DNA of 46,584 nt, counting the filler, from Jimgerdemannia flammicorona (lineage: Eukaryota): assembly GCA_003990765.1 (NCBI GenBank). It is 2 parts of 2 records of this genome, joined end to end, with 100 filler letters (N's around TTAATTAATTAA, not from the genome) between each part and the next. Parts side by side here need not be neighbours in the genome. Positions count along the whole stretch, not along the records: positions 1 to 23,242 come from RBNJ01001130.1; 1 more part is not named here. One strand, given 5' to 3'. This document shows positions 1,420-23,226 of the stretch, piece by piece. A model generated the notes under the pieces. The model saw only the letters and a program-made list of their open reading frames with translations. It ran no database searches and was not told the DNA's origin. Every line of letters begins with the position of its first letter. The first letter of the stretch is position 1. The position numbers and the translations under genes are program-made.

Positions 1420-1732
1420 TGTAAGAGGGTTGCTTTTTAAGGTAACTGTTATGTAGTTCTGGAAAGGTTTTCTGGATATTCTGGATATTCTGGAAGACTG
1501 TTTTCTTATGGTCAAGATCAATTTTGTATGGAGTATATCCTCTATGCTAATTGATTTCAAGATCGGGTTGATGTCTCAACCAAAGTCCTTTTTCAGACTA
1601 GTTCTGGATGTTCAGGATTTTCCGTATTACAGGAAGTTTAAGAAACTAAGGCCAGCTTAGTTGAATCGGCATATCACTGCAGACAATACCGAATTAGGAA
1701 ATTTCGTGATGGGGTTAGGAGTGGGACCTAAT
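1420..1732 (-). repeat. 3' LTR of copy B, distal U5 part
   Basis: Reverse complement of the family LTR end (...GCAACCCTCTTACA). Resumes at 12171 after the copy A insertion. Confidence 0.93.
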
Positions 1733-1838
1733 TGTAAGTGCACAACTTCCAAGCCACCGAAATTATACATCACCCTCTGAACAAGTCACTGAAATCACAT
1801 GTGACCTCTAAACAAATCTGGAAATCACCTGCTTGATC

Positions 1839-1952
1839 ACAAAGCTGAGTCAAACCAAAGTCACAGCAGACAAAGCTGAGTCAATATGAAGTCACAGAAC
1901 ACAAGATCCATACAAACAGAATCTTACCAATCAGGACCAAATGAATATATAC
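1839..1952 (+). promoter_or_regulatory. Putative upstream U3 promoter: two CAAAGCTGAGTCAA repeats (TGAGTCA AP-1/Gcn4-type sites at 1846 and 1877), CCAAT box, TATATA
   Basis: Motifs are seen directly and are largely conserved across the LTR copies. They lie within ~180 nt upstream of the LTR-ORF ATG at 2025. Function is inferred. Confidence 0.5.
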
Positions 1953-2024
1953 CGAGCACCGAGACACATTGAAACAGAGAGCCAAAACAAACAACAACAA
2001 CCACAAACTTCCAAACACACAAAC

Positions 2025-3120
2025 ATGACCACTGAGATCTACAACCATATCCGTGCTGACATTTGGAATGCCATTGTCAACTGAGCCACACCCCCTTTGC
2101 CCCTCATGAATATCCATAGCCTAGCACCCCTCTACTTCATGGAAGCCTGATGGAATGCTCTGAACATGCTTAGTGAGGCCCACCAAATCAGACAAATCTC
2201 AAGCTACTACCAGATCGGCCGCCTCCTGGAAGATATGGTCAAACACCACCATGATACAGACATTACCTAGATGTCTCAACACCAGAAGCTCATCACCTGC
2301 AAACATCGAGAACTCTTCTACAAGTATAGTACCATTATTTCCCACCTCTGAGTTACTACCAGCGAAATGGTTGCTACCCTGTCCTATGGCCAAATCAATG
2401 ACATGATATAAGAACTCAACCACAAGTACCTCGAGTACATTGAAACCACAGACAGAACCTTCCCACACCCCAATGACCATATCCTGCAAATGCCTCAAGT
2501 TGGATATACCATGAAGGACATCTACAATATAATCCACTTCAATGAAGACAAAGCAGAAGACAATAATCCCTCTGATGCTGACATGACCTCTAGCCAAGGA
2601 TCTCTGCCAACCCTGATCACTCCGCCAACCTTGCCAATGAACTTACAACAGTTCATAACTATATATGAGACTTATTGGGACAATGACCACTGGCACGAAT
2701 ACCAACCAGTATTTACCCCGATTACTTCAATTACAATGAAGAGACCAGAGAACACAACCTGTACCTCCAGACAACCCTCAAGATTGAACCAACCACTCCA
2801 CTATCTGAGTATGTGTGACATGAACCACAGTCGCCAGCTTACTATAATCCTGCAACTTATAGTGCTGTAACTTATAGAAGATATACAGACAGCGAATCCA
2901 ATGAAAGCAAAGACAATACAACCATCCTTCATCCACCAACACCTTATCCAGCCTACGAGACAGATGATGCTATCCTGTGGGATGGTGACGAAGTCCCAAT
3001 GTATTACTATCTCAGTAAATAAGGAGAAGTAATATGCGAATCACTCTTCCTAGACAACTACTTCATCAGAGATGAGATCATTGATGGTAATGTCATCGAG
3101 ACTACCCAGACAGTGCCTAA
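2025..3120 (+). pseudogene. LTR(U3)-encoded ORF of unknown function, copy A 5' LTR (stops and frameshifts)
   Basis: Homologous to the near-intact 366-codon frames at 10392-11489 and 20881-21978. Confidence 0.75.
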
Positions 3121-3309
3121 ACCCATAAATAGCATAGCAGTCATAGTATAGTTAGACTAGCCTTGTACGACATGACTGTGAACTGACTCAGCAGTCAGAC
3201 GATCTCTTGACATATCAGATCACACTTGTACTATATGACTGCATTCCAACTCAGCAAGGCACTTAGTGCTACATCCATATTTAGCATAGTCCAGATAGCC
3301 CCTCACTAG

Positions 3310-3438
3310 TATAAATACCCCCTCCCCCAGACCTCAAAATCTCAGACTAGAATACACAAGAACATTTCTGAATACTTCCCCACAATATCCCTTCACATAA
3401 CTACTCCTAGTATAGCAATATCATGAATATCAAATAAA
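3310..3438 (+). promoter_or_regulatory. Main LTR TATA box (TATAAATACCCC at 3310) and polyadenylation signal AATAAA (3433-3438)
   Basis: Largely conserved across the family LTRs, in the expected U3/R position. Confidence 0.65.
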
Positions 3439-3799
3439 CCTATTCAATAACCCACCAACCACTCTTAAGTAAATCTGCTCTCTGTTAGGTCTCATTCCTA
3501 ACCCTGTCATGAAATTATCTATTTGGGTATTGTCTGTAGCGATATACCAATTCAACTAAGCTGGCCTTAGTTTCTTGAACTTCGTGCAATAAGGAAAATC
3601 CTGAACATCTAGAACTAGTCCGAAAAAGGACTTTGGTTGAGACGTCAATCTGATCTTGAAATCAATAAGTGTAGAGGATGTACTCCATATGAAATTGATC
3701 TTAAACATAAGAAAACAGTCTTCCAGAATATCCAGAACTTCCAGAAAACTCTTTGAGAACTACATAATGGTTACCCTAAAAAGCAACCCTCTTACAACT

Positions 3800-3808
3800 T
3801 GGTAGCAG
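3800..3808 (+). other. Primer binding site TGGTAGCAG (probably initiator tRNA-Met)
   Basis: Lies 3 nt after the LTR and is complementary to a tRNA 3' end ...CUGCUACCA. Same sequence at 20193-20201 (-) and 42335-42343. Confidence 0.75.
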
Positions 3809-5821
3809 TGGTTTACAATCCAATTCTGCTTCAAGATGCTTCCTCACCCCACTACAAACCCATCTGCAAATTCCTACAAGTTGGTATAAAGCCCAACCTC
3901 TGAACTGGAATTTATCTGAACTATCTGACAATCTGGAGAGAATTGAACCTGACATACAAGGACAATTTGACCTCTACACCTGCAACAAGTGGGATAAACT
4001 TCATTCAAAGAAAGAAGTACTCTGGTAAAACCAGCAAATAGGAGAAACCCTATACACTGAACTCCTTGCACTACACCCAGCAAGTCAAGACGAAGAAGGT
4101 CTTATTGAAGCCTTCTTTACTCTTCTCAACAAGAGTTTTGTCAGCTCCACAAATCTGAGTGAGCTAGGACAACCAGCAGCAGTCTTTCTAGCCTTAGGTC
4201 CTCACGAAGCCCAAGCCTCTGTAGCCAAGTGGCTCAATTCTACCGACTTTCACCATACCAGAACTAAGACAGCATTATACTACCGATTCCAGAATAGCAA
4301 GGCCTGCTATATTCTTAAGGAAGAAGCAAGAGAAACCATTCATCAACTACCTGACCCCAAACCTAAAACAGGCCCTGCTACAGCCCTACCTGAATCTGAA
4401 ACCAATACTGAACCTAAACTTGACTTTGAATTAAGTCCATCTGAAATCAGATATACAACTGATTCTGTCTACTTTGATGCTGAGCAAACCCAATTACATG
4501 GGGACCAAACCAAAGAAGAGGAGGAGTATCTCACTGAATTCAATCCCAGATATATCACCAAAGGAGACGCACTCCCATCAGGACAGAATACACCTACACA
4601 ACAACAAACAGGTATCTATCAAGCCCTTACTCCAGATCCACAATTACTACTTCAGCAACTTACACAGACCCAAATAACTCCATCACACTCTGCACTAGTA
4701 CCTCAAGTAGTACTAGTAACACCACTACCAGCAGTCCAACTACCTCCAGTAAACAATATGGCAAACCAACAGATTCTTGATCTTACAGCCCAAGTAGCTA
4801 TAATGGCAGCAACCAGTACTGCCTTAGCTGAACAGACCCGACCTACAAAAAATCTGAGCCTACCTACCTTCAATGGTACTGCACAAGAAGTCCAAAGCTT
4901 CATTAGTGTAGTTGACACCAACTTCGAAGCCAATCAATGAACCAATGAGCGAGTTGCTGACTGCATTCTGACAAACAATCAAGATCACACTCTGGAACAA
5001 CTCTTTGCTAATACTACAGCCTATGTCCACTGAGTTGTTATATTCTTCTGAGGACCTGCTGAAGAATGGTGGCAAACCCTTCCTGAAAAACCCCTCACAT
5101 GGGATACCTGACCTGCAGTAGTTGCTCAGAATGCAGCAAACAATGCCCCAGGATATGGAGCCCATCCTGCAGTCCCTGGACTCAAATAACTTATGATTGC
5201 CCAATACTGCAGTGAAACCATGATTGCCGAATCTCGAGTAAAACTCCGCAACCTCAAATTTGATGTACATGACAAAGAAGAATTCAAAACCTTCTGTACA
5301 AATCTTGAGTCACTCCTGAACACTGTTGGCCTAGGATACCTTGCCAATGATGAAGCATGAAATGGTACAAGAGCAGATCATTTATTTAATGCCCTACCTG
5401 AATGGCTTACTAGAAAGATCTGAGAACAAGGCCACCTAGTTGGTTGTGATCACCAACAATGGTGCCTGGCAAGAATCAAGACCATGGTCAAGTGAATCCT
5501 AACAGCCAGACCAATTCTGCCCCGAAGGTAATTCAACAACAAGGAAAAGACTTGGACCAAGAAAGAAGAACCCAAGCATGAAGCATCCCAAGCTCCCTCT
5601 ACATCCACCTCTTGGACACCCAGAAATCATGAACCCACCCAGCCGAGTACCTTCAAGAAACTCACCAAAGGCGAAAGCAATGAAATTCGAAGAAGTGGAG
5701 TATGCTTCTATTGCCAAAAGACAGGACACATGGCCAGTGCCTACCCTAACTGAAATCTCCGAACAGCAACATGAGCAACTGTTACACTCTGCACCACCTC
5801 AACAACCTGACCACCAGAACA

Positions 5822-6228
5822 CTGGACTTTGTCAAGTTAAGACAAACTGCTAAGGCCCCAACCAAAGGAAGTTAGAAAGCCGCTGGATATGACCTGTATG
5901 CATCCAAAGAAGCTACAGTTTCCAACCGAGAAGTCAAACAAGTCTACACAGGAATCAGTATCCAAATCCCTGAAGGACATATTGGAAGAATATGCTGTCA
6001 CAGCAGCCTAGCACTAAAAGGACTCTCAGTAGAAGGAGGAGTCATTGATGAAGATTACACAGGCGAAATTATTTCCTCATCCAAAACCACAGTTGGACAC
6101 CCTTCAAGATCCCTATTGGTTTCTGCATCACCCAGATCCTATTCGAAAAAATCAAGTCAACCCTGACAGTCAAGGAAGTCCCTGAATTACTGCCCACCAT
6201 CCAAGGATCCAAAGGATTTGGCTTATCA
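5822..6228 (+). pseudogene. dut: dUTPase domain between the Gag zinc knuckle and protease (copy A)
   Basis: AAGYDLY, GGVIDEDYTGEI, GSKGFG motifs. Counterparts at ~17780-18187 (-) and ~44359-44766. Confidence 0.88.
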
Positions 6229-9200
6229 AACAAGGCCCCAACCCAACCTGCCATAAGCAAAGAAGAACAATTCTACAAGAAGATCGAAGATGGATATGTA
6301 CCAAGTGGCCGATGCCCTCATGGTATTGGAATATACTCTTCCCAAATGATTGATGATTGCTTCTCTTATATCAACAAACTGGCTCAAAGAAGAACCAACA
6401 GAAGGAAAGCTCAAACAACTGAAATCACCACCATTGGATCAGACAAACTGCTTACCCTTAAGGCTTTTGTCAATGGAGCACCTCTCAAGATTATGATAGA
6501 CAGTGGTGCCTCAGGCAACTTCATCAATGAAGAAACAGCCAACAGACTTAAGGTCTTCACCTCCCTAGTATAGTAAACTCAAGCAGTTGCTATAGCTGAT
6601 GGAATCTCACATGTTATTAGCAAAGAAGTCCGCAATCTACCTTTCTGAATTGGTGACAACTGAGTACATGTTACCCTCCAGATCATACCACTTCCTGACA
6701 ACAAAATCATCCTTGGAACTCCATGGTTAAAACAAGAGAACCCCATGATCAATTGGGTAAACCATTCTCTGACCATCAAGAAAGGATGCCACAACTTCAA
6801 ACTATAAGTCAAAAAGGACCCACTCAACTCTAGTGACCCTGGACCAAAGATTACCCATATCAATAAGCTACAACTCAAGAAATTGGCCAAGAAATGCCCT
6901 CTCTTTGCCATCTCCATCCATCCATCCAAGGGAGAACCCAAGAACTCTGAAGAAGATTTCTCCAAAGTTGACAGCTATGTCAGACCACTACTCCAGAAAT
7001 TCCGGGACATATTCACAAAGAAGCTCCCAAAAGGCCTACCTCCCAAATGAGCAGTAGACCATGCTATCAAGACTATCCCAGATGCCAAACCAGCCTTCCA
7101 GTCAATCTACCACATGTCTCTGAGGGAAATTGATGCACTAAAGAAGGAAATCGACAAACTCCTAGAACCAGAATTCATCAGACCCAGTGTATCACCCTAT
7201 AGTGCACCAGTTCTCTTCGTTGTCAAGAAAGGAGGAGACCTGTGAATGTGTATTGACTACCGCGATCTCAATGAACAGACCATCAAGAACTGTTGCCCAC
7301 TACCTAGAATCAATGAAATATTCGATAGGCTCACCAACCCGCAATTTATGAGCTCCTTTGACCTGCAAAATGGTTACTGGCAAATTGCTATGAAAGAAGA
7401 AGACATCTACAAGATAGCTTTCTGAACTCGCTATGGACACTTCAAGTTCCTGGTTATGCCCTTTGGCTTAACTAATGCTCCTGTAACCTTCCAGACACTG
7501 ATGAATACCATTCTGCATCCATATCTGAACAAATTTATTGTTGTCTATATTGACAACATCCTAGTCTTCAGCAAAACCCTGGAGGAACATCTGGAACACC
7601 TTGAACTAGTATTACTGAAACTCCGAGAAAACTGACTTTTTGCCAAACTCGGCAAGTGCGAATTTCTCCTGAAAGAAATTCAATTCCTGGGACACATCAT
7701 TTCTCCAAATGGAATCAAAGTAGACCCCAGCAAAATCTCTGCAATCAAGGATTGGCCCAGACCCAAGAAGCTGAAAGACCTCTAGTCATTCCTGGGGTTA
7801 GCAAACTATTATAGGCGATTTGTTGCCAACTTTGCTAAAATCGCTACTGCCCTCACCCAAATGACCAAGTAGAGCAAGAAACAAGAACAACCCTGGACCA
7901 TGAAATAAGAGAAAGACTTCAACAATCTTATAAATTGGGGACCTGAACAAGATATCGCCTTTCAAGCACTGAAAGATGCCCTGATAACCACTCCAGTACT
8001 TCAAGCAGCAAATCCTGCCATAACATATGAAGTTACTACTAATGCCTCTGACCTAGCTCTTGGAGCTGTGCTTATGCAAGAAGGACACCCTGTGGCCTAT
8101 CACTCCTGCAAATTCAATGATGCCGAAATCAACTATGCAACTCATGAGAAGGAAATGCTAGCTATCATAGACACTCTGATCAAATGGTGACCCTACCTAG
8201 AAGGAGCACACTTTACTATATTGACTGACCACAAGTCATTAGTCAACATCAAGACACAGGCTACCCTTTCTTGAAAGCAAGCCAGATGGATGAAAGTCCT
8301 CATCAACTTTGACTATGAAATCCAGTACCACCCTGGCAAGGAAAATATTATTGCTGATGCAATCTCCAGACCACCAATTGAAGAAGTTATCCAAACTCTC
8401 ACCTTGGTTACAAACTCCATCATGGAACAAATTATCACAGCATGTGCCGATGATAAGGAAGCTCAAGCACTCTGAGAAATCCTGAATAGTGATGATACTG
8501 ACAAGCATACCCAGTACCATCAATATCAACTGAAGGACAATACTTGCTACTACAAGGATAGACTGTATGTCCCAAACAACTGAGACCTCTGAAGGACTAT
8601 CCTATTCGAATGTCATGATGCCCCTATAGCTGGACATTTAGGATTTGGTAAATGTTACAAAGTTATCTCCCAAAACTTCTATTGGCCCCACATGGCAGAT
8701 CATCTCAAAAGCTACATCACTTCCTGTGATGCCTGCCAATGGAACAAGTCCTCAACACTAGCAAAACCCGGCTTACTTCACCCTATCACAGTACCATCTG
8801 CGAAATGAGAACAAATCTCTATAGACTTCATTGTACAACTACCCCAAACCAAGAATGGGAAGGATGCAATTGTTGTCTTTATTGACTACCTCAGCAAATA
8901 AGCCCACTTTGTGCCTACTACTACTACTACAACAGCACCAGACATAGCCACACTCTTGTTTGACAAAATCTTCCACTATTATGGTCTTCCTAAGATCATT
9001 GTTAGTGAGCGAGATCTGAAATTCACCAGCCACTTTTGGAAAGCCCTCCATGCACACCTTGGAATAAAACTTGCACTATCCACAGCCTTTCACCCAGAAA
9101 CTGATGGCCAAACTGAAAGAATGAACTGAACTCTGGAACAAATGCTAAGGAACTATGTTTCCTACAGACAAGATGACTGGTATGAACACCTCACTGCAGT

Positions 9201-9720
9201 TGAGTTTGCCTATAACAATAGCAAGCAAGCCTCTCTCGGAATGACCCCATTCTTCGCCAACACTGGACAAAACCCAAACACCCCTTTGATACTTATCCAA
9301 ACTACTGATGAACCCTCCACAGTCGAAGCTGTTGAAGAATTCTTACTCCGAATGTGCAACCTAAGCCAGATTGCCATCAAGAATTTATCATGAGCTCAAG
9401 AACAACAGTCACAGTATGTTAACCAACACTGCTGAGAAAAAACCTTTGATATTGGAGAAAAAGTTCTACTAGACATCCAAGGATACCGAGTTGACAACCT
9501 CAAGTACAGACCATCTATGAAGCTGAACAGCAAGTTCATTGGACCATTTGAAGTTATTGCACAAGTCTCTCCAACATCCTACAAATTGGCACTACCGGAC
9601 ACCATTAAGATTCACCCAGTCTTTAATGTTCAACATCTCAAGCGATATAATGAGAATGATGATGAGCTATTCCCAAACTAGACCACCAAACCACCTACAC
9701 CTGTCATTATTAATGATCAA

Positions 9721-9870
9721 GAAGAATATGAAGTTAAACAAATCCTCAACAAACATAGCAACAAGAGCCACCCTGAGTACCTTGTCAAATGGAAAGGTTA
9801 CCCAATCCATGATACAACCTGGGAACCCAAGACCAATCTTCAGAATACTACCAACCTAGTTCAGGAATAT
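9721..9870 (+). other. Integrase C-terminal chromodomain
   Basis: EEYEVKQILNKH...EYLVKWKGYPIHDTTWEPKTNL, with aromatic-cage residues Y, W, Y retained. Confidence 0.92.
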
Positions 9871-10085
9871 GATTCCTTAAACAACTAGAACCAAATACTC
9901 TCACACCTCTCTGTACATACTATATATTATTCTCCTGAACATTATAATTATTGTGAACCAAACCAACAACTCAGCAAACAAGACAAGAATACTGACCCTC
10001 TGGAAAAATGGCAAACTGAAAGCAAGCCTATTCTCCTTATACCACTGAACAAAATTAGAAGGCCCCGACGAGGACATCGAAAGCT

Positions 10086-10098
10086 AAGAAGGGGAGAG
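10086..10098 (+). other. Polypurine tract of copy A
   Basis: AAGAAGGGGAGAG immediately before the 3' LTR. Confidence 0.88.
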
Positions 10099-10099
10099 T

Positions 10100-12165
10100 T
10101 GTAAGTGCACAACCTCCAAGCCACCGAAATTATACGTCACCCTCTGAACAAGCTACTGAAATCACATGCAACCTCAGAACAAATCTGGAAATCACCTGCT
10201 TGATCACAAAGCTGAGTCAAACCAAAGTTACAGCGCACAAAGCTGAGTCAATATGAAGTCACAGAATACAAGATCTACACAAATGAAATCTTACCAATCA
10301 GGACCAAATGCATATATACCGAGCACCGAGACACATCGAAACAGAGAACCAAAACAATCAGCAACAACAACAAACTTCCAAACACACAAACATGACCACC
10401 GAGATCTACAACCGTATCCATGCTGACATTTGGAATACCATTGTCAACCGAGTCACACCCCCTCTGCCTCTCATGAATATCCATAGCCTAGCACTCCTCT
10501 ACTTCATGGAAGCCCGATGGAATGCTCTGAACATACTTAGCGAGGCCCACCAAATCGGACAAATCTCAAGCTACTACCAGATTGGCCACCTCCTGGAAGA
10601 CATGGTCAAACACTACTATGATACAGACATTATTCAGATGTCTCAACACCAGAAGCTCATCGCCCGCAAACATCGAGAACTCTTCTATGAGTATAGTACC
10701 ATTATTCCCTGCCTCCGAGTTACTACTAGCGAAATGGTTGCTACTCTGTCCTATGGCCAAATCTAAAACATGATATAAGAACTCAACCACAAGTACCTCG
10801 AGTATGTCGAAACCACAGACAGAACCTTCCCACACCCCAATGACCATATCCTGCAAATGCCTCAAGTTGAATACACCATGAAGGACATCTACGATATAAT
10901 CCACTTCGATGAAAATGAAGCAGAAGACAATGATCCCTCTGATGCCGACATGACCTCTAACCAAGAATCTCTGCCAACCCTGATCACTCCGCCAACCTTG
11001 CTGATGAACTTACAACAGTTCATAACTGCATATGAGACTTATTGGGACAATGACCACTGGTACGAATACTAACCAGCATTCACCCCTGATTACTTCAACT
11101 ACAATGAAGAGACCAGAGAACACAACCTGTAACTCCAGACAACCCTCGAGATTGAACCAACCACTCCACTACCTGAGTACGAGCGACATGAACCACAGCT
11201 GCCAGCTTACTATAATTCTGCAACTCATAGTGCTGTAACTTATAGAAGATACACAGACAGCGAATCTGATGGAAGTGAAGACAATACAACCATCCTTCGA
11301 CCACCAATATCTTATCCAGCCTACGAGACAGACAATGCTATCCTGTGGGATAGCGACGAAGTCCCAATATATTACTATCTCAACGAACAAGGAGAAGTAA
11401 TCTGCAAACCACTCTTCCTAGACGACTACTTCATCAGAGATGAGATCATCGATGGTGATGTCATCGAGGACTACCCAGACAGTACCTAAACCCATAATTA
11501 GCATAGCAGTTATAGTATAGTTAGACTAGCCTTGTACAATGTGACTGTGAACTGACTCAGCAATCAGACGATCTCTTGACATGTCAGATCACACTTGTAC
11601 TATGTGACTGCATTCCGACTCAGCAAGGCACTTAGTGCTACATCCATATTTAGCATAGTCCAGATAGCTCCTCACCAGTATAAATACCCCCTCCCCCAGA
11701 CCTCAAAATCTCAGACTAGAATACACAAGAACATTCCTGAATACTTCCCAACAATATTCCTTCACATAACTACTCCTAGTATAGCAATATCATGAATAGC
11801 AAATAAACCTATTCAATAACCCACAAACTACTCTTAAGTAAATCCACTCCCTGTTAGGTCTCATTCCTAACCCCGTCACGAAATTATCTAATTGGGTATT
11901 GTCTGCAGCGATACACCAATTCAACTAAGCTGGCCTTAGTTTCTTGAACTTCCTGAAATACGGAAAATCCTGAACATCTAGAACTAGTCTGAAAAAGGAC
12001 TTTGGTTGAGACATCAACCTGATCTTGAAATCAATAAGCATAGAGGACATACTCCATATGAAATTGATCTTGACCATAAGAAAATGGTCTTCCAGAATAT
12101 CCAGAACTTTCAGAAAACTCTTCCAGAACTATGTAATGGTTACTCTAAAAAGCAACCCTCTTACA
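10100..12165 (+). repeat. 3' LTR of copy A (2066 bp)
   Basis: TGTAAG...CTTACA termini, preceded by the PPT and followed by TSD CTAAT. Confidence 0.96.
10392..11489 (+). pseudogene. LTR-encoded ORF (365 aa reconstructed, MTTEIYNRIHADIW...DVIEDYPDS), copy A 3' LTR
   Basis: Track ORFs 10308-10766 and 10857-11072 and the terminal TAA at 11487 are all in one frame, broken only by point-mutation stops. Confidence 0.8.
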
Positions 12166-12170
12166 CTAAT

Positions 12171-13909
12171 AAGGAGCAGATTTACTTAAGAGTGGGTTGT
12201 GGGTTATTGAATAGGTTTATTTGTTATTCATTATATTGCTATACTAGGAGTAGTTGTATAAAGGGATATTGTGGGGAAGTATTCAGGAATGTTCTTGTGT
12301 GTTCGAGTCTGAGATTCTGAGGTCTGGGGGAGGGGGTATTATACTAGTGAGGGGCTATCTGGACTATGCTCAATATGGGTGTAGCACTAAGTGCCTTGCT
12401 GAGTCAGAATGCAGTCATGTAGTACAAGTGTGATCTGACATGTCAAGAGATCGTCTGACTGCTGGGTCAGTTCACAGTCACGTCATACAATGCTAATCTA
12501 ACTATACAATGACTGCTAGGCTATTTATGGGTTTAGGCACTGTCTGGGTAGTCCTCAATAACATCATCATCAATTGCATCATCTCAGATAAAGTAGTCAT
12601 CTAGGAAAAGTGGTTTGCAGATTACTTCTCCTTGTTCGCTGAGGTAATAATACATTGGGACTTCAACTCCATCCCACAGGATAGCATCGTCTGTCTCATA
12701 GGCTGGATAAGGTATTGGTGATGTATTGTCTTCACTTTCATTGGATTTGCTATCTGCATACCTTCTATAGGTTACAGCACTATGAGTTGCAGGATTGTAG
12801 TAAGTTGGCAGCTGTGGTTCATGTTACTCATACTCAGGTGGTGGAGTGGTTGGTTCAATCTCAGGGGATGTCTGGAGGTATAGGTTGTGTTCTCCGGTCT
12901 CTTCATTATAGTTGAAGTAATCGGGGGTGAATGCTGGTTGGTATTTGTGCCAGTGGTCATTGTCCCAATAAGTCTCATATGCAGTTATGAACTGTTGTAA
13001 GTTCATCGGCAAGGTTGGCAGAGTGATCAGGGTTGGCAGAGATCCTTGGCTAGAGGTCATGTCAGTGTCGGAGAGATCATTGTCTTCTGCTTCATCTTTA
13101 TCGAAGTGGATTATATCATAGATGTCCTTCATGGTGTATCCAACTTGAGGCATTTGCAAGATATGGTCATTGGGGTGTGGAAAGGTTCTGTCTGTGGTTT
13201 CGACGTACTCGAGGTACTTGTGGTTGAGTTCTTGTATCATGTCATCAATTTGACCATAGGACAGGATAGCAACCATTTTGCTGATAGTAACTCAGAGGTG
13301 GGGAATAATGGTACTATACTCATAGAAGAGTTCTCAATGTTTGTAGGCGATGAGCTTCTAGTGTTGAGACATCTGGGTAATGTCTGTATCATAGTGGTGT
13401 TTGACCATGTCTTCTAGGAGGCGGCCAATCTGGTAGTAGCTTGAGATTTGTCCTATTCGGTAAGCCTCGCTAAGCATATTCAGAGCATTCCATCAGACTT
13501 CCACAAAGTAGATGGGTGCTGGGCTATGGATATTCATGAGGGGCAGAAGGGGTGTGGCTCGGTTGACAATGGCATTCCAAATATCAGCACAGATACGGTT
13601 GTAGATCTCAGTGGTCATGTTTGTGTGTTTGGAAGTTTGTAGTTATTGTTATTTGTTTTGGTTCTCTGTTTTGACGTGTCTCAGTGCTCGGTATATATGT
13701 ATTTGGTCCTGATTGATAAGATTCTGTTTGTGTAGATCTTCTGTTCTGTGACTTCATATTGACTCAGCTTTGTGCCTGTGACTTCAGTTTGACTCAGCTT
13801 TGTGATTAAGCAGGTGATTTCCAGATTTGTTCAGAGGTCGCGTGTGATTTCAGTAGCTTGTTCAGAGGGTGACATATAATTTCGGTGGCTTGGAGGTTGT
13901 GCGCTAACA
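12171..13909 (-). repeat. 3' LTR of copy B, U3/R part
   Basis: Reverse complement of the family LTR, with the PPT adjacent at 13911-13928. Confidence 0.94.
12533..13618 (-). pseudogene. LTR-encoded ORF, copy B 3' LTR
   Basis: Contains track ORF 12824-13276 and carries a small internal deletion. Confidence 0.75.
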
Positions 13910-14119
13910 ACTCTCCCCTTCTTAGCTTTCGACATTCTTGTCAGGGCCTTCTAATTTTGTTCAGTGGTACAGGGAGAATAGGCTTACTTTCAGTTTGCCA
14001 TTTTCCAGAGGGTCAGTATTCTTGTCTTGTTTGCTGAGTTCTTGGTTTGGTTCGCAATAATTATAATGTTTGGGAGGATAATATATAGTATGTATAGAGA
14101 GGTGCAAGAGTATTTGGTT

Positions 14120-17100
14120 CTAGTTGTTCAAGGAATCATATTCCTGAACTAGGTTGGTAGCATTCTGAAGATTGGTTTTAGGTTCCCAGGTTGCATCATG
14201 GATTGGATAACCTTTCCATTTGACAAGGTACTCGGGGTGGCTCTTGTTGCCATGTTTGTTGAGGATTTATTCAACTTTGTATTCTTCTTGATCATTAATA
14301 ATGACATGTGCAGGTGGTTTGGTGGTTCAGTTTGGGAATAGCTCATAATCATTCTCATTATATCGCTTGAGATGTTAAACATTAAAGACTGGGTGAATCT
14401 TAATGGTGTCCAGTTGTGCCAATTTGTAGGAGGTTGGAGAGACTTGTGCAATAACTTCAAATGGTCCAATGAACTTGCTGTTCAGCTTCATAGATGATCT
14501 GTACTTGAGGTTGTCAACTTGGTATCCTCAGATGTCTAGTAGAACTTTTTCTCTAATATCAAAGGTTTCTTCTTGGCGGTATTGGTTAACATATTGTTAC
14601 TGTTGTTCTTGAGCTCGTAATAAGTTCTCGATGGTAATCTGGCTTAGGTTGCGCATTCGGAGTAAGAATTCTTCAACAGCTTCGACTGTAGAGGGTTCTT
14701 CTGTGGTTCGGATAAGTGTCAAAGGGGTGTTTGGGTTTTGTCCAGTGTTGGCGAAGAATGGGGTCATTCTGAGAGAGGCTTGCTTGCTGTTGTTATAAGC
14801 AAACTCAACTGCTGTCAGGTGTTCATGCCAATCATCTTGTCTGTAGGAAACATAGTTCTTTAGTATTTGTTCCAGAGTTTGGTTCATTCTTTCAGTTTGG
14901 CCATCAGTTTCAGAGTAAAAGGCTGTGGATAGTGCAAGTTTTGTTCCAAGGTGTGTATAGAGGGCTTTCCAAAAATGGCTGGTGAATTTCAGATCTCGGT
15001 CACTAACAATGATCTTAGGAAGACCATGATAGCGGAAGATGTTGTTAAACAAGAGTGTGGCTATGTCTGGTGCTGTTGCAGTAGTAGTAGTAGGCACAAA
15101 GTGGGCTTGTTTGCTGAGGTAGTCTACAAAGACAACAATTGCATCCTTCCCGTTCTTGGTTTGGGGTAGTTGTATAATGAATTCTATAGAGATTTGTTTC
15201 CAATTCACAGATGGTACTGGGATAGAGTGAGGTAAGCCAGGTTTTGCTAGTGTTGAGGACTTATTTCATTGGCAGGCATCACAGGAAGTAATGTAGGTCT
15301 TGAGCTGATCTGCCATGCAGGGCCAATAGAAGTTTTGGGAGATAACTTCGTAACATTTATCAAATCCTAAATGTCCAGCTGTAGGGGCATCATGACATTC
15401 AAATAGGATAGTCCTTCGGAGGTCTCAGTTGTTTGGAACATACAGTCTGTCTTTGTAGTAGATAGCATTGTCCTTCAGTTGGTATTGATGATACTGTGTA
15501 TGCTTGTTGGTATTGTCACTACTTAGGATTTCTTGCAGTGCTTGAGCTTCCTTATCATCAGCATCTACTGTGATAATTTGTTCCATGATGGAGTTTATAA
15601 CCAAGGTGAGAGTTTGGATAACCTCTTTGATTGGTGGTCTGGAGATTGCATCAGCAACAATATTTTCCTTGCCAGGGCGGTACTGGATTTCATAGTCAAA
15701 GTTGGTAAGAACTTTCATCTATCTGGCTTGCTTTCGAGAAAGGGTAGCTTGGATCTTGATGTTGACTAATGACTTGTGGTCAGTCAAAACAGTGAAGTGT
15801 GCTCCTTCTAGATATGGTCACCACTTGATCAGTGTGTCTACAATGGCTAGCATTTTCTTCTCATAAGTTGTGTAGTTGATTTCGGCATCATTGAACTTGT
15901 GGGAGTGATAGGCCACAGGGTGTCCTTCTTGCATGAGCACTGCTCCAAGAGCTAGGTCAGAAACATCAGTAATAACTTCATATGGTAGGGCAGGATTTGC
16001 TGCTTGAAGTACTGGAGTGGTTATCAAAGCATCTTTCAGTGCTTGAAAGGCAGTATCTTGCTTGGGTCCCCAAGTTACAAGATTATTGAAGTCTTTCTCT
16101 TGTTTTATGGTCCAGGGTTGTTCTTGTTTCTTGTTGTGCTTGGTCATTTGGGTGAGGGTGGTAGTGATTTTAGCAAAGTTGGCAACAAATTGCCTGTAAT
16201 AGTTTGCTAATCCCAGGAATGACTGGAGGTCTTTCAGCTTCTTGGGTCTGGGCCAATCCTTGATTGCAGAGATTTTGCTGGGGTCCACTTTGATTCCATT
16301 TGGAGTGACAATGTGTCTAAAGAATTGAATTTCTTTCAGGAGAAATTCATACTTACTGAGTTTTGCAAAGAGTCAGTTTTCTCGGAGTTTCAGTAGTACT
16401 AGTTCAAGGTGTTCAAGATGTTCCTCTAGGGTTTTGCTGAAGACTAGAATGTCATCAATGTAGACAACAATGAATTTGTCCAGGTTTGGATGCAGAATGG
16501 TATTCATCAGTGTCTGGAAGGTTGCTGGAGCATTAGTTAAGCCAAAGGGCATAACCAGGAACTCAAAGTGTCCATAGCGAGTTCGGAAAGCCATCTTGTA
16601 GATGTCTTCTTCTTTCATAGCAATTTGCCAGTAACTATTTCACAGGTCAAAGGAGCTCATGAATTGTGGATTGATGAGCCTATCAAATATTTCATCGATC
16701 CTTGGTAGTGGGCAACAGTTCTTGATGGTCTGTTCATTGAGATCTTGGTAGTTAATGCACATTCGCAGGTCTTCTCCTTTCTTGACAATGAAGAGGACAG
16801 GTGCACCATAGGGTGATACACTGGGTCTAATGAATCCTTATTCTAGGAGTTCATCAATTTTCTTCTTGAGTGCATCAATTTCTCTCAGAGACATGTGGTA
16901 GATTGACTTGAAGGCTGGTTTGGCATCTGGGATAGTCTTGATAGCATGGTCTACTGCTCATTTGGGAGGTAGGCCTTTCGGGAGCTTCTTTGGAAATATG
17001 TCCCAGAATTTCTGAAGTAGTGGTCTGACATGGCTGTCAACTTTGGAGAAAACTTCTTCAGAGTTCTCAGGTTCTCCCTTGGATGGACAGATGGAGATGG

Positions 17101-19252
17101 TGAAGAGAGGGCATTTCTTGGCCAATTTCTTGAGTTGTAGCTTGTTGATGTGAGTGATCTTTGGTCCAGGGTCACTAGAGTTGAGTGGGTCCTTTTTGAC
17201 TTGTAGTTTGAAGTTGTGGTGTCCTTTCTTGATGGTCAGAGAATGGTTTACCCAATCGATCATAGGGTTCTCTTGTTTTAACCATAGAGTTCCAAGGATG
17301 ATTTCATTGTCAGGAAGTGGTATGATCTGGAGGATAACATGTACTCGGTAGTTGTCAATTCAGAAAGGTAGATTGCAGACTTCTTTGCTAATAACATGTG
17401 AGGTTCCATCAGCTGTAGCAACTGCTTGAGTTTGCTGTACTAGGGAGGTGAAGACCTTGAGTCTGTTGGCTGTCTCTTCATTGATGAAGTTGCCTGAGGC
17501 ACCACTGTCTATCATAATCTTGACAGGTGCTCTATTGACAAAAGCCTTAAGGGTGAGCAGTTTGTCTAATCCAATGGTGGTGATTTCAGTTATAGGAGCT
17601 TTCCTTCTGTTGGTTCTTCTTTGAGCCAGTTCATTGACACAAGAGAAGCAATCATCAATTATTCGAGAAAAGTACATTCCAATGCCATGAGGGCATCGGG
17701 TGCTGGGTACATATCCATCTTTGATCTTCTTGTAGAATTGTTCTTCTTTGCTCATAGTAGGTTGGGCTGGGGCCTTGTTTGATGAGCCAAATCCTTTGGA
17801 TCCTTGGATGGTGAGCAGTAATTCAGAGACTTCCTTGACTATCAGGGTTGACTTGATTTTTTCGAATAGGATCTGGGCAATGCAGAAGCCAATAGGGATC
17901 TTGAAGGGTATCCAACTGTGGTTTCGAATGAGGACAATAATTTCACCTGTATAATCTTCATCAATGACTCCTCCTTCTACTGAGAGTCCTTTCAGTGCTA
18001 GGCTGCTGTGACAGCATATTCTTCCAACATATCCTTCAGGGATTTGGATACTGATTCCTGTATAGACTTGTTTGACTTCTAGGTTGGAAACTGTAGCTTC
18101 TTTGGCTGCATACAGGTCATATCCAGCTGCTTTTTGACTTCCTTTGGTTGGGGCCTTCGCAGTTTCTCTTAACTTGACAAAGTCCAGTGTTCTGGTGGTC
18201 AGGTTGTTGAGGTGGTGCAGAGTGATAACAGTTGCTCATGTTGCTGTTCAGGGTTTTCGGTTAGAGCAGACACTGGCCATGTGTCCTGTCTTTCAGCAAT
18301 AGAAGCATGCTCCACTTCTTCGAAGTTCATTTCTTTTGCCTTCAGTAAGTTTCTTAAAGGTACTTGGCTGGGTGGGTTCATGATTTCTGAGTATCCAAGA
18401 GGTGGATGTGGAGGGAGCTTGAGATGCTTCATGCTTGGGTTCTTCTTTCTTGGTCCAAGTCTTTTCCTTGATATTGAATTGCCTTCGGGGCAGAATTGGT
18501 CCAGCTGTTAGGATTTGCTTGATCATGGTCTTGATTCTTGCCAGGCACCATTATTGGTGATCACAACCAACTGGGTGACCTTGTTCTCAGATTTTTCTAG
18601 TAAGCCATTCAGGCAGGGCATTGAACAAGTGGTCTGCTCTTATACCATTTCATGCTTCATCATTGGCAATATATCCTAGGCCAACAGTGTTCAGGAGTGA
18701 CTCGAGTTTTATACAGAAGGATTCGAATTCTTCTTTGCCATGTACATCAAATTTGAGGTTGTGGAGCTTTACTCGAGATTCGGTGATCATGGTTTCGCTG
18801 CGATATTGGATAATCATGAGTTGTTTAAGTCCAGGAGCTGCAGGATAGGCTCCATATCCTAGGGCATTGTTTGTTGTATTCTGAGCAACTACTGCAGGTT
18901 GGGTATCCCATGTGAGAGGTTTTTTAGGAAGAGTTTGCCACCATTCTTCAGCAGGTCCTTGGAAGAATGTAACAACTTGGCAGACATAGGCTGTAGTTGT
19001 AGCAAAGAGTTGTTCCAGAGTGTGGTCTTGATTATTTATCAGAATACGGTCAGCAACTCGCTCATTGGTCCATTGATTGGCTTCAAAGTTGGTGTCAACT
19101 ACACTTATGAAGCTTTGGACTTCTTGTGCAGTACCATTGAAGGTAGGTAGGCTCAGATTTTTGGTATGTCGGGTCTGTTCAGCTAAGGTAGTAATGGTTG
19201 CTGCCATTATGGCTACCTGGGCTGTGAGGTCTAGAATCTGTTGGTTTGCTAT
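14120..19252 (-). pseudogene. gag-dUTPase-PR-RT-RNaseH-IN-chromodomain polyprotein, copy B
   Basis: Track fragments 18650-19207 (gag), 17360-17755 (PR), 16373-16618 (RT, YIDD), 15818-16288 (RT/RH), 14597-15208 (IN). Knuckle CFYCxKTGHMASVC reads in frame into the dUTPase. Confidence 0.95.
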
Positions 19253-20204
19253 GTTGTTTAGTAGAGGCAGTTGGACTGCTGGTAGTAGTGTTACTGGTAC
19301 TACTTGAGATACTGGTGCAGAGTGTGATGGGGTTCTTTGGATCTGTGTAAGTTGCTGGAGTAGTAGTTGTGAGTCTGGAGTGAGGGCTTGTTAGATAGCT
19401 GTTTGTTTCTGTATAGGTGTATTCTGTCCTGATGGGAGTGCATCTCCTTCAGTGGTATATCCGGGATTGAATTTGGTGAGATACTCCTCCCCTTCTTCAG
19501 TTTGGTCCCCATGTAATTGGGTTTGCTCAGCATTAAAGTAGACAGAATCAGTTGTATATCTGATTTCAGATGGACTTAATCCAAAGTCAAGTTCAGGTTC
19601 AGTATTGGTTTCAGATTCAGGTAGGGCTGTAGCAGGGCCTGCTTTAGGTTCAGGGTCAGGTAGTTGACGAAGGGTTTCTCTTGCCTCTTCTTTAAGAATA
19701 TGGCGTGCCTTGCTGTTCTAGAATCGATAGTATAGTGCAGTCTTGGTCCTGGTATGGTGAAAGTCGGTAGAGATGAGCCACTTAGCTACAGAGGCTTGGG
19801 CTTCATGAGGAACTAAGGCTAGAAAGACTGCTGCTAGTTGTCCTAGGTTGCTCGGATTTGTGGAGCTAAGTTGAGAAGAGTAAAGAAGGCTTCAATAAGA
19901 CCTTCTTCATCTTGACTTGCTGGGTGTAGTGCAAGGAGTTCAGTGAAAAGGGTTTCACCTATTTGCTGGTTTAACTGGAGTACTTCTTTCTTTGAATGAA
20001 GTTTATCCCACTTGTTGCAGGTGTGGAGGTCAAATTGTCCTTGTATGTCAGGTTCAATTCTCTCCAGATTGTCAGATGGTTCAGGATAAATTCCAGTTCA
20101 GAGGTTGGGCTTTATACCAACTTGTTGGAATTCACAGAAGGGTTTGTAGCAGGATGAGGAAGCATCTTGAAGCACAATTGGTTTGAAAACCACTGCTACC
20201 AAGT

Positions 20205-22270
20205 TGTAAGAGTGTTGCTTTTTAAGGTAACCATTATGTAGTTCTGGAAAGGTTTTCTGGATATTCTGGATATTCTGGAAGACCGTTTTCTTATGGTCAA
20301 GATCAATTTCGTATGGAGTACATCCTCTACACTTATTGATTTCAAGATCGGGTTGACGTCTCAACCAAAGTCCTTTTTCGGACTAGTTCTGGATGTTCAG
20401 GATTTTCCGTATTTCAGGAAGTTCAAGAAACCAAGGCCAGCTTAGTTGAATTGGTGTATCGCTGCAGACAATACCCAATTAGGAAATTTCGTGATAGAGT
20501 TAGGAGTGGGACCTAATAGGGAGCAGATTTACTTAAGAGTGGGTTGTGGGTTATTGAATAGGTTTATTTGCTATTCATTATATTACTATACTAGAAGTAG
20601 TTGTGTAAAGGGATATTGTGGGGAAGTATTCAGGAATGTTCTTCTATGTTCGAATCTGAGATTCTGAGGTCTGGGGGAGTGGGTATTTATACTAGTGAGG
20701 GGCTATCTGGACTATGCTCAATATGGATGTAGCACTAAGTGCCTTGCTGAGTCAGAATGCAGTCATATAGTACAAGTGTGATCTGATATGTCAAGAGATC
20801 ATCTGACTACTGAGTCAGTTTACAGTCATGTCGTACAATGCTAATCTAACTATACTATGACTGCTAGGCTATTTATGGATTTAGGCACTGTCTGGGTAGT
20901 CCTCGATGACATCACCATCAATTGCATCATCTCAGATAAAGTAGTCATCTAGGAAAAGTAGTTCACAGATTACTTCTCCTTGTTCACTGAGGTAATAATA
21001 TATTGGGACTTCATCTCTGTCCCACAGGATAGCATCGTCTGTCTCATAGGCCCGATAAGGTGTTGGTGGACGAAGGATAGGTGTATTGTCTTCACTTTCA
21101 TCAGATTCGCTATCTGCATACCTTCTATAGATTACAGCACTATGAGTTGCAGGATTGTAGTAAGCTGGTGGCTGTGGTTCATGTCGCTCGTACTCAGGTG
21201 GTGGAATGGTTGGTTCGATCTCAAGGGTTGCCTGGAGGTACAGGTTGTGTTCTCCAGTCTCTTCATTGTAGTTGAAGTAATCGGGTGTGAATGCTGGTTG
21301 GTATTCGTGCCAGTGGTCATTGTCCCAATAAGTCTCATATGCAGTTATGAACTGTTGTAAGTTCATCGGCAATATTGGTAGAGTGATCAGGGTTGGCAGA
21401 GATCCTTGGCTAGAGGTCATGTCAGCATTAGAGGGATTATTGTCTTCTACTATATCTTCATCAAAGTGGATTAAATCATAGATGTCCTTCATGGCATATC
21501 CAACTTGAGGCATTTGCAGGATATGGTCATTGGGGTGTAGGAAGGTTCTGTCTGTAGTTTCGACATACTCGAGGTACTTGTGGTCGAGTTCTTGTATCAT
21601 GTTGTCGATTTGGCCATAGGACAGGGTAGCAACCATTTCGCTGATAGTAACTCGGAGGTGGGTAATAATGGTACTATACTCATAGAAGAGTTCTCGATGT
21701 TTGTGGGCAATGAGCTTCTGGTGTTGAGACATCTGGGTAATGTCTGTATTATGGTGGTGTTCGACCATATCTTCCAGGAGGTGGCCGATCTGGTAGTAGC
21801 TTGAGATTTGTCTGATTCAGTGGGCCTCACTAAGCATGTTCAGAGTATTCCATCAGGCTTCCATGAAGTAGAGGGGTGCTAGGCTATGGATATTCATGAG
21901 GAGCAGAGGGGGTGTGGCTCGGTTGACAATGGTATTCCAAATGTCAGCATGGATACAGTTGTAGATCTCGGTGGTCATGTTTGTGTGTTTGGAAGTTTGT
22001 AGTTGTTGTTGTTTGTTTTGGTTCTCTGTTTCGACATGTCTCGGTGCTCGGTATATATGCATTTGGTCCTGATTGGTAAGATTCTGTTTGTGTAGATCTT
22101 GTGTTCTGTGACTTCATATTGACTCAGCTTTGTGCGCTGTGACTTCGGTTTGACTCAGCTTTGTGATCAAGCAGGTGATTTCCAGATTTGTTCAGAGGTC
22201 GCGTGTGATTTCAGTGGCTTGTTCAGAGGGTGACATATAATTTCGGTGGCTTGAAGGTTGTGCACTTATA
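20205..22270 (-). repeat. 5' LTR of copy B (2066 bp)
   Basis: Adjacent to the PBS; outer end TATAAG (mutated TGTAAG) next to TSD TGTGC. Confidence 0.95.
20881..21978 (-). pseudogene. LTR-encoded ORF, copy B 5' LTR (best preserved: 366 codons, three TGA stops)
   Basis: 1098 nt with no frameshift. Includes the 278-aa track ORF 20932-21768. The stops fall where other copies have CGA, CAA or AGA. Confidence 0.82.
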
Positions 22271-23226
22271 TGTGCACTGCAACATCATGACTGAGGTGAA
22301 TCTTCTGATGTCTGCAGTCTCAGCAATCAGGGTGTCTCCCATGGTTGCAATATCCCATTGCTCAGAAATGATGTTCTTGGCTATTTATCTCTTGTTGTTT
22401 TGGAAATCAGTACCCATCTTGATCATAGGTTGGGGGAAGGGTAGACAAGGGGTATATTTCTGTTTGGGTAAAGAAGCCTTGTCCTCTAAATCGACTTTGT
22501 AACCTTGTGGTGACTTCCTGAAAGGTGGTAGACTGTGCAAGAGTAGTTGGGGGTTCTGGTCTCTGGGGTCTCTGTCTTTCTTATTGGTCCAACAGATGAC
22601 ACTGATAGCAATAGTCTTGGGGAGAGTGGAAGACCATTTGATGTGGACATCTTCCTAGCCAGAAAGCTTTCTCTTGGTGGGTTTCTTTCTTGGGAATAAT
22701 GGTGATGATACTGGGTCCTTCCTCTGTATTCCAGGGGTCATTGTCTTCAGGTGGTGTTCAGCAAGGGTCATCCCAGGGGATGAGTTCGAGGACTTCTTCT
22801 TCATGAGGTGCTTCTTGTTCAGGAACTTCTTGGTCAGAAGTTTCTTCTTCCTCAGATGATTCTTGACCCCAAATTGCTTATACCTCTGCAGCTTCGATTG
22901 CAGGTGTTTCTGGAATATATCTGCATTTCTTCTTCTTTTTTCTGCATTCTGGGGGGGCTACACCAGGTGATTTCCTTGTTCCCATGATCTTGGAGGAGTG
23001 CTTGGGACACTTGTGTCTCTTGAGGCATGTGGGGCATCCTTTGGCTTCTCCTGCAATGGCTCCAATGATGATGGAGATGGTGTTCTTAGCCCACATATTG
23101 TCTTCTGGTCTGTCATCCACTAGGTTAATCTGAGGATTGAGTCTGGGATTATTTCCATCTTCAGATTCTTCTTCTTCCTCTGTGGTAGATTCTTCACTGC
23201 TGGCATACTCTTCCTGAATAGTGACC
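22271..23226 (-). mobile_element. Element C, upstream part of the polyprotein (acidic and Cys/His-containing region)
   Basis: Joins 1414 across TSD TGTGC. Encodes acidic tracts and CPTCLKRHKCPKH. Ends at a poly(T) run. Confidence 0.65.

Follow-up and report, generated by a model that had tools for sequence, protein, structure and literature searches.

A candidate accessory gene inside the long terminal repeats of a dUTPase-bearing retrotransposon family of Jimgerdemannia flammicorona

Five copies of one reading frame lie in the LTRs of three elements

We analysed 46,584 nt of DNA, filler included, from Jimgerdemannia flammicorona (NCBI GenBank assembly GCA_003990765.1). This window, by which we mean the whole stretch at its full length, joins parts of two records with 100 filler letters between them, and its positions 1 to 23,242 come from RBNJ01001130.1. 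It contains a retrotransposon family whose long terminal repeats (LTRs) all hold the same sense open reading frame (ORF) of ~366 codons. Overall, we read this ORF as a real accessory gene of a dUTPase-bearing Ty3/Gypsy element, borne in the predicted unique 3' region (U3) of the LTR and copied into both LTRs at every integration, and we give this reading a probability of roughly 0.6.

The five LTRs belong to three elements (E1, E2, and E3), one of which is nested in the 3' LTR of another. As the first-pass annotation had reported, five spans share the same sense frame; they all translate to a product that begins with MTTEIYN and ends with EDYPDS, and the focal frame is on the minus strand. The copies are as follows:

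20881-21978, minus strand: focal copy, within E2's 5' LTR; 366 codons counting the terminal stop, interrupted by TGA at codons 42, 54, and 349
10392-11489, plus strand: copy in the 3' LTR of E1; 366 codons, with four internal TAA codons and CGA (Arg) kept at codon 42
2025-3122, plus strand: copy in the 5' LTR of E1; two 1-nt deletions and several stops
12533-13618, minus strand: copy in the 3' LTR of E2; an in-frame 12-nt deletion and six stops
40566-41652, plus strand: copy in the 5' LTR of E3; an 11-nt deletion

The two copies said to keep exactly 366 codons do so, with 3 and 4 internal stops. The five spans had been quoted as the LTRs themselves; they are in fact the ORF copies, and the LTR extents were off by about 1 kb. 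Window self-comparison and end alignments give LTRs of 2054-2066 bp (~2.06 kb) with the ends TGTAAG...CTTACA, and the focal ORF occupies positions 293-1390 of its LTR. The proposal of an accessory gene stands insofar as the frame is coding, lies in the LTR, and is present in both LTRs of both complete elements. Its supposed retention in solo LTRs does not: all five LTRs are assigned to E1, E2, or E3, and the window has no solo LTR. A tblastn search found no paralogue of the ORF elsewhere in the window, internal regions included.

This frame has 3-7 internal stops, compared to 11-38 in the five other frames of copies without a frameshift. When the focal copy was shuffled 5000 times, the mean number of stops was 18 and the minimum 5, and the observed 3 were reached in 0/5000 shuffles. 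Sixteen codons are a stop in some copy, yet each of them is a sense codon in another, so that none is fixed in all five; most of these stop/sense differences are a single C-to-T change. None of the five copies in the window is still functional; the damage consists mainly of C-to-T transitions, together with a few indels. The indels within the ORF (1, 1, 11, and 12 nt, versus 7 events in the LTR flanks) are post-insertion decay and uninformative on coding. Stops are also few (5-13) in the exactly antisense frame, which contains ORFs of 126-138 aa at 20962-21360 (+) and 13001-13417 (+). This frame is probably a by-product of codon composition, and the phase of the substitutions favours the sense frame.

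Substitutions in the ORF are codon-phased in the lineages of the elements

We distinguished changes private to one LTR of the E1 or E2 pair, which postdate the end of selection for transposition (post-insertion class), from fixed E1-versus-E2 differences and E3-private changes (lineage class). The 95 post-insertion changes in the ORF have a ratio of nonsynonymous plus stop to synonymous changes of 64:31 and are distributed 42:26:27 over the three codon positions, while the 94 lineage changes have a ratio of 45:49 and a distribution of 24:17:53. The classes differ in both respects (Fisher p = 0.008 for nonsynonymous versus synonymous, p = 1.2e-4 for position 3). Given the base composition of each codon position, 33.8 lineage changes were expected at position 3 and 53 were found (p = 6e-5); 34.6 post-insertion changes were expected there and 27 were found (p = 0.11). 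The third-position excess is present in every third of the ORF (3:4:13, 9:4:16, and 12:9:24), and the LTR segments that flank the ORF have no codon phase (14:11:6 and 23:22:16).

The same pattern is found in the pol genes. In a test restricted to the E3 lineage, the LTR ORF gave 19:11:38, the dUTPase-protease region 21:17:38, and the reverse transcriptase and RNase H regions 12:8:24 and 18:9:20. Base composition is likewise pol-like, with G at codon positions 1/2/3 of the LTR ORF at 0.277/0.107/0.137, and codon counts correlate with those of pol in frame (r = 0.56) and less so out of frame (0.26 and 0.12). Nei-Gojobori dN/dS is 0.33-0.48 between the LTRs of one element and 0.19-0.32 between elements; we do not use it as primary evidence because the transition bias lowers it even in LTR pairs expected to be neutral, and only the difference between the two sets carries information. 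The frame was thus protein-coding while the family was active, and its ancestors had an intact frame of ~365 codons. Past purifying selection on the protein was about as strong as on pol, a conclusion that is well supported for so small a sample.

These results bear on the notion that there is no gene here and that the frame is a by-product of the A/C-rich sense strand or of some cis-acting constraint. Such a notion is scarcely credible and already largely refuted: none of the shuffles was as stop-poor as the observed frame, substitutions are phased in the ORF and unphased around it, base composition has a coding periodicity, and a relative at 62% identity (see below) is open, while neutral drift keeps the frame open in ~1% of runs. 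What speaks for it is that the frame comes without domain, fold, or expression support and that its antisense counterpart is stop-poor as well.

The post-insertion changes have a spectrum of their own. Across the five LTRs, 140/166 are transitions, chiefly C>T (75) and G>A (32) on the sense strand, and per-site change rates at CpG (0.05-0.07) exceed those at CpC (0.04) and CpA/TpG (0.033-0.035), which in turn exceed that at CpT (0.012). Parallel hits are very frequent, and homoplasy is heavy, with 89/141 two-carrier sites in conflict with the element tree. Such a spectrum would fit deamination of cytosines in methylated repeats or a process akin to repeat-induced point mutation (RIP). CpC (29 changes) and GpG (2) are affected asymmetrically.

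The ORF has two database relatives and is common in public runs

An exhaustive HMMER scan of 1.84 billion representatives returned two matches. The first, P0003 (247 aa, 62% identity, from a 998-bp contig), is open and was also the one protein of similar length in a word-indexed search. Its frame continues to the same C-terminus; codon 349 is Arg, long invariant blocks are kept, and two 2-residue indels set it apart. The second, P0005 (128 aa, 84% identity, from a 1180-bp contig), is also open and has Arg at codons 42 and 54, at which window copies carry stops. When the focal copy was drifted neutrally to 63% identity, with indels left out, the frame was still open in 37/5000 and 55/5000 runs.

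Contigs of 4/4 public runs examined (four studies, mostly soil metagenomes) cover the ORF span, namely 30/30 bins in X1, X2, and X3 and 24/30 bins in X12, with 3480 aligned contigs in X1 alone. The ORF-bearing LTR is therefore the common form of an abundant family and not a one-off capture. Two of 12 indel rows in the aligned contigs fall within the ORF; both come from a single contig and compensate each other. The rows are concentrated in a simple repeat, so the signal is weak. Related DNA was not found in the metagenome-contig and viral-contig collections, nor by tblastn in plasmids, an irrelevant collection.

A captured fragment of a host gene, transduced into the LTR and of no service to the element, would be a different origin for the ORF. 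LTR retrotransposons do transduce host sequence, and transduced ORFs occur in one or few copies, as the accessible part of the text of PMC7264820 describes. A donor gene elsewhere in the host genome is conceivable, and the parents of E1 and E2 may have had stops before insertion. We nevertheless see little chance for such a passenger: lineage changes have a pol-like excess of third-position and synonymous changes, codon use matches pol, each of the five LTRs, from three elements, has the ORF, as do the contigs of all four runs, and the two matches among 1.84 billion representatives are both short contigs, with no longer cellular protein among them.

The ORF probably lies in U3, behind the polypurine tract

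The LTR contains several candidate expression signals, listed here for the focal copy in order of transcription:

22099-22165, minus strand: 31-bp tandem repeat of 2.2 copies in the 5' part of the LTR, with two TGASTCA sites at 22120 and 22151
22052-22076, minus strand: CCAAT (22072-22076) and TATATA (22052-22057), 98 and 79 nt upstream of the ATG; putative promoter P1
20684-20691, minus strand: TATAAATA, ~190 nt past the ORF stop; putative main LTR promoter P2
20563-20568, minus strand: AATAAA polyadenylation [poly(A)] signal, kept in all five LTRs, with the predicted boundary between the repeated region (R) and the unique 5' region (U5) just downstream

Counted along the focal LTR, CCAAT is at 195, TATATA at 214, the ATG at 293, the stop at 1390, a TGACTCA at 1454, TATAAATA at 1580, AATAAA at 1703, and the end at 2066. 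The pair of AP-1/Gcn4-type TGASTCA sites in the tandem repeat (TGAGTCA at LTR positions ~114 and 145) is kept in 4/5 LTRs, and the motif occurs 25 times in the window versus 13.2 expected, 15 of the 25 being within the five LTRs. TATATAC is invariant across 5/5 LTRs. TATAAATA is intact in 4/5 LTRs and has lost one A in the 3' LTR of E2.

From the pair of TATAAATA and AATAAA, U3 is predicted to span ~1-1650 of the LTR (ending at about 20620-20650) and R to measure ~80 nt. A polypurine tract (PPT), GAAAGCTAAGAAGGGGAGAG, precedes the 3' LTRs of both complete elements, E1 and E2. Being downstream of the PPT and upstream of the conserved TATAAATA and AATAAA, the ORF is probably in U3, as the first-pass annotation had proposed; motifs and a faint hint from contig depth both point to this location.

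That hint comes from X12. Fifteen public runs were found, none of them recorded as RNA, and runs were aligned as contigs, in which start, end, and strand are unreadable. X12, guessed to be RNA and represented by contigs only, has a depth of ~90 that rises to 2300-6300 just downstream of TATAAATA. This step weakly supports a start site at TATAAATA and is no evidence on expression of the ORF. Summed contig depth over 20205-20620 (R-U5) is several-fold above that of the ORF part in 4/4 runs (X1, ~3000 versus ~1000; X12, >100-fold); other families of higher abundance may also carry this segment, or it may be over-represented in the form of short RNA.

The same features argue on the question of whether the upstream TATATA is the sole promoter, in which case the ORF would lie in R or the leader, as the first cistron of the genomic RNA, and not in U3. 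An ORF1 ahead of gag occurs in some plant Gypsy elements, the ATG is preceded at 79-98 nt by the CCAAT/TATATA pair and, farther upstream, by repeated TGAGTCA sites, and the start site in the LTR is a predicted one. We consider this arrangement improbable, given that a perfect TATAAATA lies downstream of the ORF in 4/5 LTRs, ~120 nt before the conserved AATAAA, and that depth in X12 jumps past it. A long leader would also require an R of ~1.5 kb, to our knowledge far longer than any R region known.

The predicted protein is acidic and has no recognised family

The description given in the first-pass annotation, of a helical N-half, an acidic, Pro/Tyr-rich C-half, no transmembrane segment, and no recognisable domain, is borne out throughout, the helices with low confidence. 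The protein is acidic (isoelectric point 4.05-4.35). Its first ~170 residues are His-rich and are predicted, at that low confidence, to be helical. Residues 171-365 contain 43 Asp and Glu versus 6 Lys and Arg, are 10% Pro and 9% Tyr (18 Tyr, 6 Phe, and 3 Trp), and include conserved aromatic-acidic blocks; this half is probably disordered. In composition these residues match acidic activators, in which bulky hydrophobic or aromatic side chains are scattered through an acidic region.

No hydrophobic segment is present (maximum Kyte-Doolittle value over 19 residues, 1.04), and we saw no Cys/His pattern, zinc finger, basic patch, or DNA-binding motif in the protein sequence. The protein is an orphan, for which no family, fold, or host homologue was found. 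Two leads were dropped. PPxY late-domain motifs (focal residues 260 and 270) read LPxY in other copies and are missing from P0003, and an ESM Atlas match of P0005 with a score of 0.93 shared only 155/256 features, with recognition below threshold.

The ORF may be expressed from its own promoter and act in trans

The gene lies in the LTR and is therefore duplicated at each transposition. In the genomic RNA, U3 is confined to the 3' end and lies ~8 kb away from the cap, so that a separate message is needed for the ORF. The CCAAT/TATATA pair and the tandem-repeat TGAGTCA sites in the first 290 bp of the LTR could, judging from these motifs, constitute the ORF's own promoter (P1). Transcription from P1 would yield an LTR-only mRNA of ~1.45 kb that ends at the shared poly(A) signal of the LTR, and the genomic RNA would be made separately, starting after TATAAATA.

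An expression mode in the manner of retroviral 3' genes would do without P1. The U3 ORF would be expressed only from the 3' LTR, through a spliced or subgenomic RNA from the main or an internal promoter, and the upstream CCAAT/TATATA and TGAGTCA motifs would be parts of an enhancer. Mouse mammary tumour virus (MMTV) sag and human immunodeficiency virus (HIV) nef are expressed in this way, from the 3' LTR copy, and the ORF sits directly behind the PPT as they do. The motifs upstream of the ORF are consensus matches only, and the low but non-zero depth of X12 over the ORF includes one contig that extends to 22061, which lies upstream of the start predicted for P1. However, the A/C-rich 80 nt before the ATG show no evident polypyrimidine/AG acceptor, TATATAC is conserved 79 nt before the ATG in 5/5 LTRs, and the required intron of ~8 kb would be unusual in a fungal host. 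We therefore regard this mode as quite unlikely.

For the earlier suggestion of a transactivator or anti-silencing factor, the only pointer, of low confidence, is the acidic and aromatic-rich composition of the C-half. In the mechanism we propose, docking on a host factor would be the task of the N-half, and the acidic tail would either bring in the transcription machinery or titrate a chromatin or silencing factor, with the effect of raising expression of the family. We suggest an activator or adaptor that acts in trans because the aromatic-rich acidic tail resembles activation domains; judged on composition alone, this is a tentative assignment with well below even odds, and a decoy for a chromatin or silencing factor fits about as well. 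Other roles fit less well. An Env- or Sag-like role is disfavoured by the absence of a membrane segment, and an RNA-export factor or DNA binder by that of basic or Arg-rich regions; nor is the N-terminus a myristoylation signal.

Taken furthest, each 2-kb LTR would be a self-contained cassette of activating repeats, TATA, a 365-codon ORF, and poly(A) signal, in tandem with the promoter of the genomic RNA. An orphan acidic factor could then be expressed from every LTR, any solo LTR included, and boost transcription of the family or blunt host silencing. We offer this cassette as speculation and think it unlikely to hold in full.

Evidence that weighs against an accessory gene

Several observations weigh against a U3-borne accessory gene of the proposed kind. 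The selection test comprises five copies only, and its E3-private class blends lineage changes with changes due to decay. A gag-like ORF in the same E3-lineage test has no third-position excess (15:14:7), so the test is not uniformly sensitive. There are just two relatives, on short contigs (998 and 1180 bp) that show no LTR context.

Some stops are shared between copies. The TGA at codon 349 is common to both E2 LTRs, and the TAA at codon 129 to both E1 LTRs and E3, such that the immediate parents may already have carried a truncated gene, which argues that the gene is not needed in cis. Parallel hits are also a plausible source of these stops, given the homoplasy at two-carrier sites, and that at codon 129 could be a parallel CpA hit.

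Expression and function are further points. Depth in X12 is 0-22 over the ORF versus thousands in R-U5, and the ORF transcript, its start site, and the protein are predictions. No homology supports a function for the protein: the Pfam search gave 0 families, the best PDB sequence profile had E = 1, and the ESM Atlas gave no usable match (P0003 is there at a mean predicted local distance difference test score, pLDDT, of 0.39). AlphaFold2 models have a mean pLDDT of 30.4 at full length and 50.1 for the N-terminal 128 aa and were too poor for a fold search. Finally, an acidic protein without DNA-binding features cannot alone be a sequence-specific activator.

Comparison with known LTR-borne and accessory genes

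Like the ORF described here, MMTV sag is a sizeable sense ORF that follows the PPT and is duplicated in both LTRs (it is the "LTR ORF" of the literature); it lies within U3, where the present ORF is predicted to lie. Sag is a type II membrane glycoprotein. The protein here differs in having no hydrophobic segment or Pfam family, and it belongs to a Ty3/Gypsy element without env and with a proposed promoter of its own. The nef genes of HIV and simian immunodeficiency virus (SIV) and foamy-virus bel2/bet are also 3' accessory genes that reach U3, and foamy viruses drive accessory genes from a second, internal promoter. These genes only overlap U3, however, whereas the present ORF is wholly within the LTR. 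The protein also shows no homology to the products of these genes, and it differs from Nef in that it starts with MTTEIY, has no Met-Gly myristoylation signal, and matches 0 Pfam families.

Acidic viral transactivators and adaptors (VP16-type; foamy Tas) are similar in having an Asp/Glu and Trp/Phe/Tyr/Leu tail behind a folded N-terminal part. The likeness is a functional analogy, and they have no sequence or fold similarity to the LTR-ORF protein.

Additional ORFs (aORFs) of LTR retrotransposons are internal and in most cases situated after pol and ahead of the 3' LTR, according to the accessible text of PMC7264820, which lists the env-like ORFs of Athila/Bagy2, the antisense ORFs of Grande/RIRE2/Retand/Boty, and ORF1 of Ogre (PMC7264820). 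As with our ORF, aORFs are family-wide, have no assigned function and no cellular homologue, and are conserved like gag-pol in the part of that article available (PMC7264820). They differ in being internal, while the ORF here is past the PPT and starts 293 nt inside the LTR. The phrases "in the LTR", "within the LTR", and "inside the LTR" have 0 occurrences in the available text of PMC7264820.

Fungal Gypsy elements that bear a dUTPase (PosPlaTy3 of Postia placenta and elements of Phanerochaete and Tuber [Tmt1]) are comparable by the domain order of Pol. In the available parts of PMC2864245, which deals with basidiomycete elements, PosPlaTy3-3 has the dUTPase at the N-terminus of Pol, before the protease, and no LTR-borne ORF is described; a figure marks an "add. 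ORF" whose position is outside those parts (PMC2864245). The full-text literature searched, from which most subscription journals are absent, contained no report of a conserved protein ORF inside a Ty3/Gypsy LTR. Thus, U3 ORFs in retroviruses and family-wide aORFs are known, and what appears to be new is an orphan accessory ORF behind the PPT, inside the predicted U3 of a Ty3/Gypsy element.

Anatomy of the elements and their surroundings

Judging from its sequence features, the family is a Ty3/Gypsy LTR retrotransposon with a dUTPase at the N-terminus of Pol. It has direct TG...CA LTRs, 5-bp target duplications, a primer-binding site (PBS), a PPT, and the integrase last in Pol. The order of Pol is dUTPase, protease, reverse transcriptase, RNase H, and integrase; the reverse transcriptase (RVT_1) was seen in P0006, a relative at 92% identity. 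The parts of the elements are:

1733-12165, plus strand: E1, complete element of 10433 bp, nested within the 3' LTR of E2; target duplication CTAAT at 1728-1732 and 12166-12170
1733-3796 and 10100-12165, plus strand: LTRs of E1, from end alignments
10079-10098, plus strand: PPT of E1, before the 3' LTR
22270 down to 1420, minus strand: E2, interrupted element; target duplication GCACA at 1415-1419 and 22271-22275
20205-22270, minus strand: complete 5' LTR of E2, 2066 bp, which starts with TATAAG (TGTAAG in other copies) and ends with CTTACA
20190-20201, minus strand: PBS TGGTAGCAGTGG, 3 nt beyond the end of the E2 5' LTR, with the same spacing in E1; we take it to be that of initiator tRNA-Met
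13910-20204, minus strand: internal region of E2, with gag-like ORFs, dUTPase plus protease, reverse transcriptase, RNase H, and integrase
17360-18235, minus strand: dUTPase and aspartic protease of E2 in one ORF (PF00692 at residues 26-152, protease at 226-288)
15818-16372, minus strand: RNase H of E2, from the Pfam search
14597-15265, minus strand: integrase (rve) of E2, from the Pfam search
12166-13909, minus strand: proximal part of the E2 3' LTR, interrupted by E1, with the ORF copy at 12533-13618
1420-1732, minus strand: distal 313 bp of the E2 3' LTR, displaced by the nested E1, from self-comparison and the target duplication
40278-42331, plus strand: 5' LTR of E3, an element running past the window end, with the ORF copy at 40566-41652

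The inverted 313-bp piece had suggested a split repeat of the DIRS/Ngaro kind, which was rejected because the nested insertion with its target duplications accounts for the piece. LTR-pair identity is 92.2% in E1 and 92.5% in E2, though E1 is necessarily the younger insertion. The gag-like ORF at 18650-19390 (-) has no Pfam match and may be fast-evolving or locally misframed in one copy.

Beyond these elements, positions 1-1414, and probably also those from 22276 onward, belong to an older element that E2 invaded. It has a dUTPase ORF at 276-1391 (-; PF00692, E = 5e-28) and is not alignable to the present family as DNA. Between 23688 and 37588 lie two non-LTR (LINE-type) copies with an endonuclease/exonuclease/phosphatase domain and a reverse transcriptase; they are inverted, only ~70% identical, have extreme GC skews of about -0.47 and +0.48, and have a G+C content of ~0.50, above that of the rest of the window. 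Rfam gave 0 matches across the window.

Implications for retrotransposon biology

The value of the finding is limited, in that every copy in the window is dead and the function is only inferred. Annotation pipelines mask retrotransposon LTRs, which are regarded as non-coding control regions. If a U3-borne accessory gene is indeed present here, the placement of accessory genes behind the PPT, familiar from retroviral sag and nef, has also arisen outside retroviruses, an orphan protein family joins the short list of retrotransposon accessory factors, and the question arises of a tandem pair of promoters within a single LTR, which would make an LTR-only mRNA and the genomic RNA, respectively. Should each LTR be a self-contained cassette, the family would possess a type of regulator that has not been described for Ty3/Gypsy elements, and copies of the gene would spread at twice the element's own rate. 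If the protein modulates transcription or silencing, it would bear on the persistence of high-copy elements in repeat landscapes that are heavily methylated or mutated.

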